This document shows, in pieces, positions 2,986 through 7,285 of a DNA stretch of 8,238 nucleotides (position 1 is its first letter; the number at the start of each line of letters is the position of its first letter). The translations under genes and the position numbers were made by a program. This DNA is from a virus. Lineage: Duplodnaviria; Heunggongvirae; Uroviricota; Caudoviricetes. The DNA lies in IMG/VR virus record IMGVR_UViG_2548876694_000021. One strand, given 5' to 3'. The notes under the pieces were generated by a model. It was not told the origin of the DNA. It did no database searches and saw only the letters and a list, made by a program, of their open reading frames with translations.

Positions 2986-3726
2986 TCACATACCCTGACG
3001 TCCAACGTTTGACCGCCAGCTATCCCAGTTAAACGTCACCCATCGACCACCGTTCATGGTCATGCGGTCCATAATCCTCTCACCAAGAAGTGTACTCATT
3101 GCGGCATGATTCAGGTTTGTTAACATCCCGACACTGCACAGTGATGCTGTCCGGCGATCAATTATCTGGTGTAATACCACCTGCTCGTTTTTCGTCTCCC
3201 GCTGAACGCCTATTTCATCCAGGACCAGCAAATCAACACTGCAAAGCTCCTGTAAAAATTTTTCCCCGGATTTGCCGTTGTCGTAGCTGTCATGCAACAC
3301 GCTCATGACATCAGACACGGTGACGATAATCACGCTGCGCCCCTTCGCCATCAGCCGGTTACCCATCGCCGCTGCAAGGTGATTTTTCCCGGTGCCGGTT
3401 TTACCGCTGAACACAAAATTCGTGCACCCGGTCATCAGTTCGTCAGCTATGGATTTGGCCTGGCTCAGCGCGTATTTTTGCCCGTCGTTCTGCACCTGAT
3501 AATTCGCAAACGAGCATTTGCTGTGCAGAGGCTGGATGCCCGAACGATTCAGGATTTTTTCCACCCGCAACTGGTGATTCTGGCGGTTAATCTCCTCGCT
3601 GCGTTTTCGTCCTTCAGCAAGTTGCCATTCCCGCCACTCCTCCACCGTCCGGTACGGTGGAACCGACGCCTGTGGTGCAAGTCTGCGAATACGTTCAAGA
3701 ACCCCGGCTGCCGCAATGTTTTTCAT
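2986..3726 (-). CDS. DnaC-like AAA+ helicase loader (IstB-like ATPase)
   Basis: Walker A (FVFSGKTGTGKNHLAAAMG) and Walker B (DLLVLDEIG) motifs. The start ATG overlaps the stop of the upstream initiator gene (ATGA at 3723-3726), indicating translational coupling. Confidence 0.88.
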   Translation of the reverse strand: MKNIAAAGVLERIRRLAPQASVPPYRTVEEWREWQLAEGRKRSEEINRQNHQLRVEKILNRSGIQPLHSKCSFANYQVQNDGQKYALSQAKSIADELMTGCTNFVFSGKTGTGKNHLAAAMGNRLMAKGRSVIIVTVSDVMSVLHDSYDNGKSGEKFLQELCSVDLLVLDEIGVQRETKNEQVVLHQIIDRRTASLCSVGMLTNLNHAAMSTLLGERIMDRMTMNGGRWVTFNWDSWRSNVGRQGM

Positions 3727-4847
3727 GCCACATCACCCCTGAATCCCGGCGGAATTTCGGTATCCGGTTCAGAAATATGATTCACACAACGCTGGTTGTT
3801 CGTGCCGCTTACCGGGAGCAACCAGGGGTTTTCAAAATTCCGGTCCGGCCCAAAAAACGTCGTCGCTCGCTGAACAAATTCCGTTCCCGCTTTCCCGGTC
3901 GCCGCCAGGTATCTCGCGTAACGCCTCACACCATCCAGCATGGTCTCTGGTGGCACCCCCTCGCGCAATCTGGCCTTCCAGGCACTGAAAGCGGATTTCT
4001 TCGGGTTTGCCCCAGCACGCAACGGGTATTCCCGCCAGACCTGTTCGAACACATCCGGATAATCCACTCGTCCCACAGACTGCCCGGTGCTTTCCGGGAC
4101 TACCCGATCGGCTTCCCGCTGAATGGCGGAATCGGCTTCAGGCTGCTGCAGTTGGTGTGATTGCTCCGACCCTGCGGTCATCACCTGCTGCACAGCGCCC
4201 GAATCGGCTTTCAGCGCATACGCTGAATCGGCTTCCGGTGTCGTGCCTGCTGGCTGACCAGGATTGACGGTCTGAACATCCCCTGCCTGGTTCGTGGTGT
4301 TTTTTTTGCCATGAACCATAGTGTTTTTGTCCTGTTCCTGTTCTTTCTCCTGCTCCTGTTCCTGTTCTTGGCTTCGAAGCCCCTTAAAAGCCCCTTCGAA
4401 GCCCCTTACCGAATTTCGGCTATTATTCCGCCTCACATCCAGATGGAAATCCGTTTTATATCTGTCGTAAAACACTGACAGAAAAGCGTTTTCAGGTAAT
4501 GATGCATACTCATTCCTGACACCTGCACAACGGTTATCGCCAGGCTTCAACGTTTCCCCAACCTGCCAGGCTGCCATTTCATGGACCCAGACCATCTCTG
4601 CATCATGGTCATAGCTACAAAAACCAGCTTCAACAGCCCTTTTAAGCCCCTTTGAAGCCCCTTCCAGACCAAGCCCGGTTTCATGAGCAAGGTATAAAAC
4701 TGGCAGGTAATACAAACCCAGCATATTTGCGTGAGGGGATGTCATCAGGTAAAAAGCAACAACTTGCGCTTCTGCACCCGCCTTTCTAAGTTCTCTCCCC
4801 GTTTCTCCCAGCCAGAATCGCGGAGAAACTTTTGCGTAATCACGCAT
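3723..4847 (-). CDS. Phage replication initiator / replisome organiser with a DnaT-like C-terminal domain
   Basis: The ORF extends to 4958, but the ATG at 4847 (MRDYAKVSPRFWLGE...) has GAGGTAG upstream and is the likelier start. The C-terminus ...VNHISEPDTEIPPGFRG resembles the C-terminus of primosomal protein DnaT as I recall it. There is a central QEQEQEQEKEQEQ linker. Iteron-like repeats lie inside the gene. Confidence 0.8.
   Translation of the reverse strand: MRDYAKVSPRFWLGETGRELRKAGAEAQVVAFYLMTSPHANMLGLYYLPVLYLAHETGLGLEGASKGLKRAVEAGFCSYDHDAEMVWVHEMAAWQVGETLKPGDNRCAGVRNEYASLPENAFLSVFYDRYKTDFHLDVRRNNSRNSVRGFEGAFKGLRSQEQEQEQEKEQEQDKNTMVHGKKNTTNQAGDVQTVNPGQPAGTTPEADSAYALKADSGAVQQVMTAGSEQSHQLQQPEADSAIQREADRVVPESTGQSVGRVDYPDVFEQVWREYPLRAGANPKKSAFSAWKARLREGVPPETMLDGVRRYARYLAATGKAGTEFVQRATTFFGPDRNFENPWLLPVSGTNNQRCVNHISEPDTEIPPGFRGDVA
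4331..4366. repeat. Imperfect hexanucleotide tandem repeat (CCTGTT)n, encoding the Q/E-repeat linker of the initiator
   Basis: Read directly: cctgttcctgttctttctcctgctcctgttcctgtt. On the coding strand it gives QEQEQEQEKEQEQ. Confidence 0.7.
4375..4407. repeat. Iteron-like direct repeats, cluster A: three copies of AAGCCCCTT at about 11-12 bp spacing
   Basis: Copies at 4376-4384, 4387-4395 and 4399-4407. The spacing is close to one helical turn. They lie inside the initiator gene next to the linker. Confidence 0.5.
4635..4680. repeat. Iteron-like direct repeats, cluster B: two exact AAGCCCCTT copies plus flanking degenerate copies
   Basis: Exact copies at 4644-4652 and 4655-4663 (11 bp apart). 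Degenerate copies at 4635-4643 (agccctttt) and 4671-4680 (aagcccggtt). Confidence 0.45.
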
Positions 4848-4925
4848 GGCTACCTCATCTGGTGCCGAACCTTCCTCCGGATATAATCTGTGGTTCCCAA
4901 TCGACAGAACCAGAGGAGGTTCGAC

Positions 4926-5381
4926 ATGTATTTTTTGAAAAGCCTTTATCAGGCTCATGTATTAAATGTTGCAGCAACAAACCGCTGGTGTAACAGCCCC
5001 GAAATGCTCCCGGATTACAGAGCCTGGCTGCGCGCCGAAACATACCTTCGTCTCGACATATTGATTAGCGAACTTCAAAAAGAGACTGCATCCATTCATA
5101 ACCTTCAGGGTATCGATGCTGTTCGCATTCTGGTATCGCGCCATAGTGCTCTCTCAATAATTGAAGTGCGTCATCTCTCTTTTTCTGAACTGATTTTCTT
5201 GCTTCAACCAGCTCTGGAATCAGCGAATATCCCACCGGAAGTGATCCAATACCCACCTCATGTTGACGAGCAGTTACAAGATGTGCCATACAACCAGCGT
5301 GCTGGATTGACTCCCTGCTCAGAGGCTGAATGGGATCACTCTCTGCTGAAGAAATACCAAGATTTGTATAATCCTCAATAA
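4926..5381 (+). CDS. Hypothetical protein (151 aa), antisense to the early operon; mutually exclusive with the minus-strand ORF 5065-5574
   Basis: AGGAGG at 4913-4918 sits 7 nt upstream of the ATG at 4926, inside an otherwise non-coding 217-nt gap of the minus-strand operon. Seven of the eight Arg codons I decoded by hand are CGT/CGC. No recognised domain. Confidence 0.42.
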   Translation: MYFLKSLYQAHVLNVAATNRWCNSPEMLPDYRAWLRAETYLRLDILISELQKETASIHNLQGIDAVRILVSRHSALSIIEVRHLSFSELIFLLQPALESANIPPEVIQYPPHVDEQLQDVPYNQRAGLTPCSEAEWDHSLLKKYQDLYNPQ

Positions 5382-5574
5382 GCCCGGCACACGCTTCTGC
5401 ATCAGCCAGCTTTATTCTGGTTTCCTTGCGCTGTTCTCTGGCTGACAAACGCCAGAGCAGCGCATTAGCTTTATGTATCAACCACTCTGCCAGCTCCACA
5501 TCAGATAAACCGCCACGCCAGATGTGCGGACTGTTTTCGTAAACGCTCAGTGTCAATTTTTTGTCATTACTCAT
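5065..5574 (-). CDS. Hypothetical protein (169 aa), co-directional with the early operon; alternative to the plus-strand ORF 4926-5381
   Basis: ATG at 5574 lies 13 nt after the YdaT-like stop, with only a weak GGGT SD. Several Arg codons decoded by hand are AGA/AGG/CGA. The protein (MSNDKKLTLSVYENSPHIWRGG...) looks globular but I do not recognise it. Confidence 0.38.
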   Translation of the reverse strand: MSNDKKLTLSVYENSPHIWRGGLSDVELAEWLIHKANALLWRLSAREQRKETRIKLADAEACAGLIEDYTNLGISSAESDPIQPLSRESIQHAGCMAHLVTARQHEVGIGSLPVGYSLIPELVEARKSVQKKRDDALQLLREHYGAIPECEQHRYPEGYEWMQSLFEVR

Positions 5575-5587
5575 ATTTATTACCCAA

Positions 5588-6013
5588 TTAATGCACAGCC
5601 AGAGTGTTTCCTGCCGGGCCACCACGATTCATCTGATCGAACAGAACGATCGCTGATGCAACGAAATCATCAATATCTTTCACCAGCCGTTCCTTCGTCT
5701 CTACCAACTCCCGAAAATAAGCGGAACTGTGGCTGCGCATTCGGGCCACCAGCGGAGGCGGCATCGCTTTTTCGATCGCTGGTAACAACGCCTGAATTTT
5801 TTTAACCGCATCAGGAGTGTCTTTCTCCACCCAGCGGAAAATTTTCTGAGTATTGCGAGCCATGGCTTCCGGATGGCTGTCGTCATACAGTTCCGGGAAC
5901 GTCATTCCCAGCTCGAAATACGCTTTGGTAATTTTCGCAGCCGGTACTTTTTCGCCGTCCGGATGCGCCCAGGCATTCATCGCCATGCGGATGTGTTCAT
6001 GCTTGATTTTCAT
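5588..6013 (-). CDS. YdaT-like protein (Rac-prophage YdaT family; proposed CII-type regulator)
   Basis: 141 aa starting MKIKHEHI and ending ...TLAVH, matching my recollection of YdaT-family proteins. GGAG lies 8 nt upstream. Its start overlaps the end of the Cro-like gene by 17 nt. Confidence 0.7.
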   Translation of the reverse strand: MKIKHEHIRMAMNAWAHPDGEKVPAAKITKAYFELGMTFPELYDDSHPEAMARNTQKIFRWVEKDTPDAVKKIQALLPAIEKAMPPPLVARMRSHSSAYFRELVETKERLVKDIDDFVASAIVLFDQMNRGGPAGNTLAVH

Positions 6014-6269
6014 GAATCAACTCCGGCGCATTTGATGTGTTAACCTTACATCCAACAGGTAAACCGTCGGTTGGGTTAGGATAAATATCTGGGCGGATTT
6101 CATGCGGGGTAACTTCCCACTTCATTAGTTGGCATAACGGAATTACCTGCTTTGGGGGAACGCCAAAGCTAAACCATTGCCAAACAGTCTGTTGAGCGAC
6201 CCCCATATAACGACCTATTTCAGCCTGAGTGTATTTCTGCCTAATTTTTTCGCGAGTGCTATCTAGCAT
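5997..6269 (-). CDS. Cro/YdaS-like HTH DNA-binding protein (first gene of the leftward early operon)
   Basis: GAGGAGG SD upstream of the ATG at 6269. HTH segment QAEIGRYMGVAQQTVWQW and a ...TPHEIRPDIYPNPTDGLP... motif typical of YdaS-like Cro proteins. It is divergent from the repressor gene. Confidence 0.8.
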   Translation of the reverse strand: MLDSTREKIRQKYTQAEIGRYMGVAQQTVWQWFSFGVPPKQVIPLCQLMKWEVTPHEIRPDIYPNPTDGLPVGCKVNTSNAPELIHENQA

Positions 6270-6377: not shown

Positions 6378-6779
6378 ATGATGAGCGCCCTAGAAGTATC
6401 TATGTACAGAATCAGCAAGCTTCTTCAGGAAACTGGATGGAGCCAGGCTGAGCTTGCCCGTAGAATTGGTGTGACACAACAAACTGTTCAACAATGGGTC
6501 AGCGGTAAGGCTACACCTAAAGCCTCAAGTTTGGATAAACTGGTTGAGGTTTCAGGGCATCCATTGCATTGGTTTTTATTGCCTCCTGAAGAGTGTGAGC
6601 AAATTTTCACCCCTGACACGATGAAAATTGGTCCTCGCCAACGCGAACTGCTCCAAGCTTTTAGTGCGTTTCCTGAGGAAGACCAAGAAAAAATGCTTCA
6701 AGAAATCAAAGACAAGAAAAAATCAATGGAAGAAACCATTGCTAGGTGGCTGGCGGCACAAAAAAGCCGCCGGGCGTGA
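6378..6779 (+). CDS. Prophage repressor, XRE/DicA-type HTH; PaaR-like first gene of a three-gene repressor-antitoxin-toxin operon
   Basis: HTH segment SQAELARRIGVTQQTVQQWVSGK. No LexA-type S24 peptidase domain. The C-terminal part (GPRQRELLQAFSAFPEEDQEKM) resembles DicA/RacR-type repressors as I recall them. It is divergent from the cro-like gene. Confidence 0.85.
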   Translation: MMSALEVSMYRISKLLQETGWSQAELARRIGVTQQTVQQWVSGKATPKASSLDKLVEVSGHPLHWFLLPPEECEQIFTPDTMKIGPRQRELLQAFSAFPEEDQEKMLQEIKDKKKSMEETIARWLAAQKSRRA

Positions 6780-6806: not shown

Positions 6807-6998
6807 ATGGGTACAGCCCTTTCTCCGATAGTTTCAGAATTCGAAACTACCGAACAAGAAAACAGTTACAACGAATGGTTGCGCACTAAAGTAACGTCAA
6901 GCCTTGCAGACACTCGCCCCGCAATTCCACATGACGAGGTAATGGCTGAAATGGAAAATCTTATTGCTCAAATTGCTGTAACTAACAAGAGCGAGTAA
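6807..6998 (+). CDS. paaA: Type II antitoxin partner of ParE (PaaA-like, 63 aa)
   Basis: GAGGAG lies 7 nt upstream of the ATG. Small acidic protein (…SEFETTEQENSYNEWLRTKV…HDEVMAEMENLIAQI). Its stop overlaps the toxin start (TAATG at 6996-7000). It resembles PaaA2 of E. coli O157 prophages as I recall it. Confidence 0.72.
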   Translation: MGTALSPIVSEFETTEQENSYNEWLRTKVTSSLADTRPAIPHDEVMAEMENLIAQIAVTNKSE

Positions 6999-7285
6999 TG
7001 TTACCCATTTTATGGCTACCGTCTGCTCGCGATGATTTGCGCCAGATCATAACTTACATCGCCAAGGAGAACCCACCGGCAGCACGTAGACTAAAAATAC
7101 GCATTGAAACATCGGTATTACCTCTATCTGAGCATCCGTACTTATATCCACCAAGCGAACGGGTTTCTGGATTGAGAGAGATCGTGACCCACCCTAACTA
7201 CATAATCCTGTACAGAGTAGCTGCTTCAAGCATTGAGATTGTAAGCGTGACACATTCTCGGCGACAATTTCCCTTCTCTATCTGA
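6998..7285 (+). CDS. parE: ParE/RelE-superfamily type II toxin (ParE-like, 95 aa)
   Basis: The MLPILWLPSARDDLRQI...EHPYLYPPSERVSGLREIVTHPNYIILYRVAASSIEIVSVTHSRRQF pattern is characteristic of ParE toxins. It is translationally coupled to the antitoxin gene. Confidence 0.85.
   Translation: MLPILWLPSARDDLRQIITYIAKENPPAARRLKIRIETSVLPLSEHPYLYPPSERVSGLREIVTHPNYIILYRVAASSIEIVSVTHSRRQFPFSI

Follow-up and report, generated by a model that had tools for sequence, protein, structure and literature searches.

Long antiparallel protein-coding overlaps in bacteria and their phages are rare and contested, most of the proposed cases being short, young and taxonomically narrow, and annotation pipelines discard one of two overlapping frames by rule. 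The antisense overlapping genes described from Escherichia coli O157:H7, namely asa, ano, oloz0137, oloz4542 and oloz5029, comprise ~60–100 codons, lie partly or wholly inside a widely conserved 'mother gene' and are supported by expression, with full-length homologues confined to Escherichia and Shigella (PMC6294744, PMC5960689, PMC9927249). The closest described situation to the one analysed here is that in the Pseudomonas phage Fc02, in which olg1, on the lysogenic strand, is overlapped antisense by gene 10, the second gene of the lytic operon, and in which the products of both genes give superinfection exclusion (PMC9936078). The present analysis concerns two overlapping open reading frames (ORFs) in an 8,238-nucleotide (nt) stretch of DNA from a virus of the Caudoviricetes (IMG/VR record IMGVR_UViG_2548876694_000021), referred to below as the window. 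One, the plus ORF, opposes the early operon; the other, the minus ORF, follows it. We consider it likely that both are genuine protein-coding genes, which would form a convergent cassette with their 3' parts on opposite strands of the same 260–320 nt.

The plus ORF (4926..5381, plus strand) encodes 151 residues from an ATG at 4926, or 163 residues in its longest form, from GTG 4890. The minus ORF (5065..5574, minus strand) encodes 169 residues from an ATG at 5574, or 186 residues in its longest form, from GTG 5625. They meet tail to tail in an antiparallel overlap of 317 nt (5065..5381), of which ~5127–5381 is a conserved dual-coding core. The first-pass annotation of the window had given both ORFs with these coordinates and lengths, and had placed them between YdaT-like and initiator genes, a placement that the Pfam and PHROG matches of the two neighbours confirm. 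In the phase of the overlap plus codon position 1 lies opposite minus position 1, plus position 3 opposite minus position 2 and plus position 2 opposite minus position 3, so that a synonymous third-position change in one frame alters the second position in its partner.

Protein searches gave full-length homologues of both ORFs down to ~50% identity, and retrieval of loci (given L numbers here) extended this to ~31–38%; a protein-pattern scan of contigs representing one genome per species found no relatives. Both ORFs are intact in the window and in L002/L042, L003, L004, L082–L087 and L172–L174, and in 11 loci the overlap spans 260–323 nt in the same relative phase. Salmonella relatives with a minus protein of 192–197 residues imply longer overlaps still. 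The three loci retrieved by the non-overlapping part of the minus protein (L082–L084) all have an intact plus ORF, as do both of those retrieved by minus-protein matches (L085, L086), and the minus ORF is intact in most lineages retrieved via the plus protein. The plus ORF is intact in all lineages examined except L175, a metagenomic contig that has lost 1 nt from an A-run.

The genomic surroundings of the pair vary. In E. coli it sits between YdaT and the initiator, in Salmonella between Cox/helix-turn-helix genes and ASH/exonuclease VIII genes, and on metagenomic contigs either 3' of a cI-like repressor or directly after a cro-like gene. Whatever the context, the minus ORF reads with the early operon and the plus ORF reads against it; the earlier view of a plus gene antisense to, and converging on, the operon thus holds as far as ORF layout is concerned. 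From these comparisons the pair appears to be a conserved, horizontally mobile cassette of ~730 bp (roughly 4860–5590 in the window) in temperate phages of Enterobacterales. The GC profile does not clearly mark the cassette, and we make no compositional claim for it.

Each protein belongs to a family of its own. The plus protein matches NF033230 at 105.7 bits, against a curated cut-off of 70 (E 2.1e-30), its residues 4–145 aligning with positions 3–141 of the 142 in the profile. The minus protein matches phrog_8304 (E 3.9e-120) over residues 1–169 of the protein and 1–169 of the 169 profile positions. A search of 1.84 billion representative proteins gives 22 clusters (50% identity) for its family, most with 136–197 residues and with matches extending into the overlap-encoded part. 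In genomes 100% identical to this region the Prokaryotic Genome Annotation Pipeline (PGAP) calls the plus ORF only, under the name "ECs1072 family phage-associated protein" (NF033230), whereas the minus ORF is the one found in PHROGs, as phrog_8304; neither entry mentions that the other family is encoded on the opposite strand of the same DNA. The choice between plus and minus is thus undecided in the databases too, since these two resources keep different ORFs. In the O157:H7 strain Sakai the plus ORF is now ECs_5703, the tag ECs_1072 being gone, and our literature search found no paper on the family, ECs1072 appearing only as one entry in a microarray table.

AlphaFold2 models the plus protein, from nine sequences, as an all-α structure with a mean predicted local distance difference test score (pLDDT) of 89.5 and a predicted template modelling score (pTM) of 0.85, the overlap-encoded residues being confident too. 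No known fold was found for this model, and searches of Pfam, PADLOC and PDB sequences gave no match for either protein, with no defence family in PADLOC-DB 2.0 at E ≤ 1, which agrees with the earlier remark that neither protein is recognisable. Weak matches to phrog_5286 (plus, E 0.016), to phrog_1744 (minus, E 0.024) and to SEY1 in the PDB (E 0.0067) were treated as noise. A type II toxin-antitoxin module was also considered and rejected, the pair having no matching Pfam, NCBIfam or PADLOC domains and its genes being convergent, not co-directional.

A plus homologue is also intact at L176 1526–1981, on an 867-kb chromosomal contig. The antisense frame there is open for 152 codons, nearly the whole plus ORF, and does not carry the usual minus N-terminal domain.

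Purifying selection is seen in both frames where each stands alone. In the private part of the plus gene (codons 1–46) the ratio of nonsynonymous to synonymous substitution rates (dN/dS) is 0.06–0.40, with a proportion of synonymous differences (pS) of ~0.9 in distant pairs; differences at codon positions 1, 2 and 3, for example 4, 2 and 10 or 2, 3 and 7, are dominated by the third. In the private part of the minus gene (the N-terminal 64 codons) dN/dS is 0.06–0.12 for close pairs, and the differences (3, 3 and 9; 4, 1 and 10; 5, 1 and 16) are again dominated by the third position. The comparison of synonymous with nonsynonymous variation proposed in the first-pass annotation, run per frame across homologues, thus finds constraint in both. 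Family match, conservation and purifying selection bear out its view of the plus ORF as a serious gene candidate, and its suggestion that conservation might back one frame only did not survive, since both are backed, in their private parts and jointly in the overlap.

Within the overlap the two frames are open together more often than chance would give. When one protein is fixed and its synonymous codons are shuffled or resampled, the partner frame of the window overlap is free of stops in only 0.15% of trials with the plus protein fixed and 2.2% with the minus protein fixed. Per lineage, the minus frame would be open with a probability of 0.0015–0.37 given the plus protein (0.85–4.4 stops expected), and the plus frame with a probability of 0.002–0.06 given the minus protein (2.2–4.7 stops expected); the minus frame is open in at least nine lineages, and the two frames persist side by side in lineages with proteins of only ~31–55% identity to those of the window. 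The lineage L007, which has lost the minus gene and retains an intact plus protein, is informative here. Its minus phase has stops at plus codons 69, 89 and 116, whereas 11 other lineages have no minus-phase stop beyond about plus codon 71, which indicates that the constraints of the plus protein alone do not hold the antisense frame open.

Substitution patterns change in the overlap as well. Differences there fall evenly on the first, second and third codon positions (13, 14 and 18; 8, 9 and 9; 9, 17 and 12), and pS falls in both frames by roughly half, from ~0.6–0.9 in the private parts to ~0.3–0.47. At conserved residues only, compared in four disjoint pairs, codon identity rises in the plus frame from 0.32 outside the overlap to 0.57 inside (p = 8e-5) and in the minus frame from 0.55 to 0.68 (p = 0.03).

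A further contrast comes from a recoding null in which the eight proteins of one frame are fixed and synonymous codons are redrawn independently in each lineage. With the plus proteins fixed, conservation of the minus frame is 4.29/8 compared with 2.98 ± 0.08 under the null (z = 16), with 0 stops against ~18; with the minus proteins fixed, conservation of the plus frame is 4.53 compared with 2.90 (z = 19), with 0 stops against ~23. The same statistic in the private part of the plus gene gives z = 2.1 (10 stops), showing that the null is reasonably calibrated for that gene. A per-codon map of 5127–5381 places minus conservation at 3.3–5.8 of 8 lineages and plus conservation at 3.3–6.4 of 8, and at 5337–5366 the minus frame (YxNLGxSS) is better conserved than the variable plus segment HSLLKKYQDL. 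Taken with an unconserved minus tail, this puts the functional overlap at ~255 nt, in keeping with overlaps of 260–269 nt at other loci. Of the two genes, the plus gene probably occupied the shared DNA first, and the length-variable C-terminal two-thirds of the minus protein probably arose by overprinting.

The plus ORF is preceded by a leader with an inverted repeat (4862..4927, plus strand), defined from an alignment of 16 loci and an RNAalifold helix. The ~70 nt upstream of the plus ATG are nearly invariant, following the pattern TGGTGCCGAACCTYC ... TGnTAnnCT ... GAACC-N-AGGAGGYTCGAC-ATG. The 5' arm, GTG.CGAACCTTC (4862–4874), starts 15 nt from the initiator start and is complementary to the 3' arm, GGAGGTTCG.CAT (4915–4927), which holds the Shine-Dalgarno (SD) sequence and the first two bases of the plus ATG. 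The start itself, AGGAGG (4914–4919), 6 nt and ATG, falls within the 217 nt that separate the minus stop (5065) from the start of the initiator gene (4847); an AGGAGG-ATG start inside an operon gap had been described before, and only its spacer has to be shortened, from seven nucleotides to six. RNAalifold predicts a 12-pair helix that covers the SD together with the AU of the plus AUG, with 96.9% of alignment cells paired compared with 34–50% in slid controls. Between the arms lies a −10-like element, TATAAT (4882–4887) or TAATCT (4884–4889), with an invariant T and A, a nearly invariant last T and often a preceding extended TG; in E. coli it is a perfect TATAAT. We assign the hairpin to neither strand: G-U pairs hint at the plus strand, yet RNA of the minus strand folds better. 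The leader has no literature match, and Rfam 15 has no family in 4848–5587, its matches in the window lying elsewhere, with sok as the significant one.

Several observations weigh against two genes, or against a separately transcribed plus gene. The AlphaFold2 model of the minus protein consists of long helices with a pLDDT of 62.5 and a pTM of 0.34, being best at residues 20–60 and falling to 35–77 in the overlap-encoded part. The last ~20 minus residues in the window (5067–5126) are unconserved (1.5/8 lineages), and L007/L008 have no minus ORF, with frameshifts interrupting it in L009/L010 and in L046, so that the minus gene is dispensable in some lineages; relatives of L046 have an intact form of 192–197 residues. 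The p value for the minus frame from disjoint pairs is modest (0.03), the private part of the minus gene is itself off the recoding null (z = 7.2, 24 stops), a residual signal far below that of the overlap, and suppression of synonymous change could in principle come from RNA structure instead of a second protein. As for the leader, its helix contains one compensatory pair only (a U-to-C change accompanied by AUG-to-GUG in L007), the fold is worth −26.3 kcal/mol in plus-strand RNA compared with −31.8 kcal/mol in minus-strand RNA, and a consensus scan gave no sigma-70 site in 4700–5750; the plus promoter is proposed from the conserved −10-like element. Our literature search brought up no transcript, ribosome-profiling or proteomic data on either of the two ORFs.

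In the frameshifted loci the minus ORF is split into L009 3587–3895 and 3333–3692, with the same arrangement in L010, these being two independent metagenomic samples, and it is separately frameshifted in L046 (4071–4771). The overlap-encoded part is still open in all of them. Recent decay, assembly error or programmed frameshifting could each account for the frameshifts.

Of the alternatives to two full-length genes, the one that fits best holds that the minus gene matters as a protein only over its N-terminal ~65 residues, the remainder being kept open for ribosomes on the early mRNA, where an open frame would avoid Rho-dependent polarity on the replication genes or strip antisense RNA. It would explain why the C-terminal part is modelled at low confidence and why the end of the protein varies, with 148–197 residues in total across lineages and the unconserved tail in the window, and it accords with the recurrence of the N-terminal motif in early-operon proteins with unrelated C-termini (hhalign probability 88%, 27 residues). 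It sits poorly with the per-codon map, in which the two frames reach much the same conservation throughout 5127–5381 and the minus frame leads at 5337–5366, and with ten residues of the overlap-encoded part (Y69, L72, S75, E78, I82, S86, E88, I90, P113 and Y116) that are invariant in 16 sequences. Conservation of the minus frame above the recoding null, at z = 16, calls for constraint at the level of sequence, beyond the avoidance of stops. We regard this explanation as unlikely, and retain the reading in which both proteins are under selection through the overlap core.

Still less probable, to the point of being a poor candidate, is the view embodied in the PGAP annotation, that only the plus ORF is a gene and the minus ORF a fortuitous antisense shadow. 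PGAP annotates the plus ORF alone, the NCBIfam model exists for the plus family alone, the plus protein folds confidently where the minus protein does not, and three lineages have lost the minus ORF or carry a frameshift in it. The window copy of the minus ORF also has a weak SD (tGGGtaataaatATG) and rare arginine codons (five AGA, one AGG and one CGA among 12), compared with four CGC, three CGT and one AGA in the plus ORF; these counts agree with the earlier remarks that the plus ORF has E. coli-like and the minus ORF rare arginine codons, and that the initiator gene likewise uses AGA and CGA, to which AGG can be added. The weak SD, which had been counted against the minus gene, is real in this copy and is peculiar to the E. 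coli copies, the minus ATG being conserved and most homologues having an AGGAGG- or GGAG-type SD 4–6 nt upstream (for example AGGAGGatatATG in Salmonella). A shadow would hardly show third-position-dominated change in the 64 minus codons outside the plus ORF, 22 clusters mostly near full length, or a frame kept open in at least nine lineages at the low probabilities given above and closed by stops in L007, which lacks the N-terminal part. Nor would it explain why the synonymous sites of the plus gene are constrained inside the overlap only.

The converse, that only the minus ORF is a gene and the plus ORF its shadow, has operon direction and the full-length phrog_8304 match in its favour and is scarcely credible in view of a plus ORF that persists even in L007, where there is no minus gene, its 46 private codons under purifying selection, its confident model, its nearly invariant leader and SD, and the small probability that its frame would be open given the minus protein.

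The N-terminal motif of the minus protein, SPHIWxGGLSDxELAxWL (residues ~6–25; window 5500–5560), is also found in other early-operon proteins that are otherwise unrelated, and in L085 (4558–5085) and L086 (1866–2246) two genes with an SPHIWxGGL-type motif stand in tandem. The DNA that encodes the motif forms a GC-rich hairpin followed by a plus-strand T-run. A tentative terminator for the plus transcript (5491..5539, plus strand), a hairpin and T-run ~150 nt past the plus stop, overlies these first minus codons. In L003, L082 and L083 its stem CAGCCCGC/GCGGGCTG is followed by TTTTT and has a predicted stability of −17 to −19 kcal/mol. The version in the window is weak (−9.3 kcal/mol), and a consensus terminator scan flagged no plus-strand terminator.

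If both genes are real, their arrangement suggests how they may be expressed. The minus gene would be translated from the early lytic operon mRNA, which would carry the cro/YdaS-like gene, the cII/YdaT-like gene, the minus gene and the replication genes in turn. The plus gene would be an autonomous unit directed against the operon, with an extended −10-type promoter between the repeat arms, a very strong SD and, in several lineages, an end at the hairpin-plus-U terminator. Plus transcripts begun at the gene's own promoter would not contain the 5' arm and could be translated; read-through RNA, with both arms, would have its SD and AUG sequestered. With the operon repressed, the lysogen would then make the plus protein, and after induction convergent transcription and fully complementary RNA would silence the plus gene while the minus protein is made, so that the two products would be expressed in opposite life-cycle states. 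The first-pass annotation had likewise raised the possibility of a lysis-lysogeny or defence role for a plus gene expressed in the lysogen. A further step, which we offer as a speculation and hold to be rather unlikely, is that the pair forms a two-sided life-cycle module, in which a lysogen-expressed plus protein, for instance an exclusion or abortive-infection factor, is matched by an early lytic minus partner or antidote, with the leader as a portable platform insulated from read-through. Were this so, convergent antisense transcription would enforce mutually exclusive expression, and the leader would install different antisense accessory genes at one point of the early operon, at least five unrelated ORF families being found after it.

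The leader is indeed more widespread than the cassette. A scan for the leader pattern in contigs representing one genome per species gave 72 stretches, nearly all of them chance occurrences, only L090 encoding a plus homologue, and ~64 further E. coli genomes match the leader segment only. An extended leader stands before unrelated ORFs in L088, L119 and L124. Counting these with L161–L163, L177 and L178, the leader precedes at least four other unrelated ORF families (80–151 residues), always against the early operon, in prophages of Salmonella, Trabulsiella, Xenorhabdus and other E. coli; one of these families has an N-terminal membrane helix.

A second pair, distinct in sequence and here called type B (L162 2568–3201, L163 2568–3237 and L177 2575–3208), takes up the same slot behind the same leader and with an identical phase. 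It occurs in other prophages of E. coli and in phage vB_Apl-pPE4. Its plus ORF, of 151 residues, is unannotated by PGAP, and its minus gene, of 130–137 residues, is annotated; the overlap is 179–236 nt, and, with the minus protein given, an open plus frame has a probability of 0.0003–0.005. The depositors of vB_Apl-pPE4 annotated both genes. The minus proteins of the two pair types have in common only the 27-residue N-terminal motif (hhalign probability 88%), and homology between their plus proteins was rejected (hhalign probability 0.14%).

The window covers the early part of a lambdoid prophage from E. coli of the enterohaemorrhagic type. Over positions 4700–5750 it matches E. coli E2865 and further Shiga-toxin-producing genomes at 100% identity and prophage Sp4 of O157:H7 Sakai at 99.7–99.8%, and among 5426 complete E. 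coli genomes ~455 carry the region. The early operon, on the minus strand, runs from a YdaS/cro-like gene (5997–6269), the first as listed, through a YdaT/cII-like gene (5588–6013; PF06254, E 1.2e-9; phrog_163, a cII-like activator, E 4.3e-46), the minus ORF and a replication initiator or DnaD-like helicase loader (3723–4847; phrog_1701, E 2.4e-148) to a DnaC/IstB-like ATPase (2986–3726). The YdaT-like gene and the initiator are the upstream and downstream neighbours of the pair and lie outside the cassette. A cI-like repressor (6378–6779) is encoded on the plus strand, opposite to the operon.

The initiator start at 4847 is that called by PGAP in the closest genome, and the PHROG match opens at residue 38 of the longest ORF. 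Because both begin at 4847, an extension upstream of this position is probably untranslated. The longest form, starting at 4958, would cross the leader and the first plus codons (window 4848–4958, minus strand), and the apparent conservation of the extension (IKAFQKIHVEPP) mirrors that of the leader and the plus N-terminus.

Two other loci of the window may be recorded. Directly 3' of the cI-like repressor are a RelB-like ORF (6807–6998) and a RelE/ParE-like ORF (6998–7285), both on the plus strand, which PGAP calls a type II toxin-antitoxin pair in an identical genome. At the left end of the window, a match to the sok antitoxin RNA (RF01794) at 26–200 on the minus strand (107 bits, E 3e-24) points to a hok/sok-type type I toxin-antitoxin locus.

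Several well-studied systems share single features with this locus. In fold-back inhibition of transposase translation in IS10, an upstream segment is complementary to the SD and start codon and the promoter lies between the arms; the leader described here has the same layout of arms with its own putative promoter between them, from which alone translatable transcripts would come, and no sequence relation to IS10, and differs in that its hairpin is also present in the RNA of the opposite-strand operon, where it is more stable. The oop RNA of phage lambda is a 77-nt non-coding RNA that takes part in oop/cII antisense control. Like oop, the plus gene starts beside the replication initiator and reads back towards a cII-like gene; no sequence or Rfam similarity to oop was found. 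In the sieB/esc system of P22 a prophage exclusion gene and its antidote share the same DNA, esc being in frame on the same strand, whereas the partner here is antisense.

Like the antisense genes of O157:H7, the pair involves opposite-strand coding in the same pathovar, of which pipelines routinely keep one frame. It differs from them in that the partners are similar in size and each has a private N-terminal part, and in that the pair is borne on a cassette and co-conserved across genera to ~31–38% identity; the support is expression in those cases and evolutionary here. Conserved across genera to about one-third identity, with constraint in both frames, the pair would be among the better comparative examples of its kind, and its presence in the well-studied prophage Sakai Sp4 makes it experimentally tractable. 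Since the leader places diverse unannotated genes antisense to early operons, the gene content of these regions may be systematically under-called.

With Fc02 the locus shares a layout beside the lysis-lysogeny switch and an expected expression of the two products at opposite stages of the life cycle. Fc02 is a Mu-like phage, and the two pairs are unrelated in sequence and belong to different phage types and hosts, the present one being known from its sequence. What the present locus would add to these systems is a deeply conserved, cassette-borne, convergent dual-coding pair.

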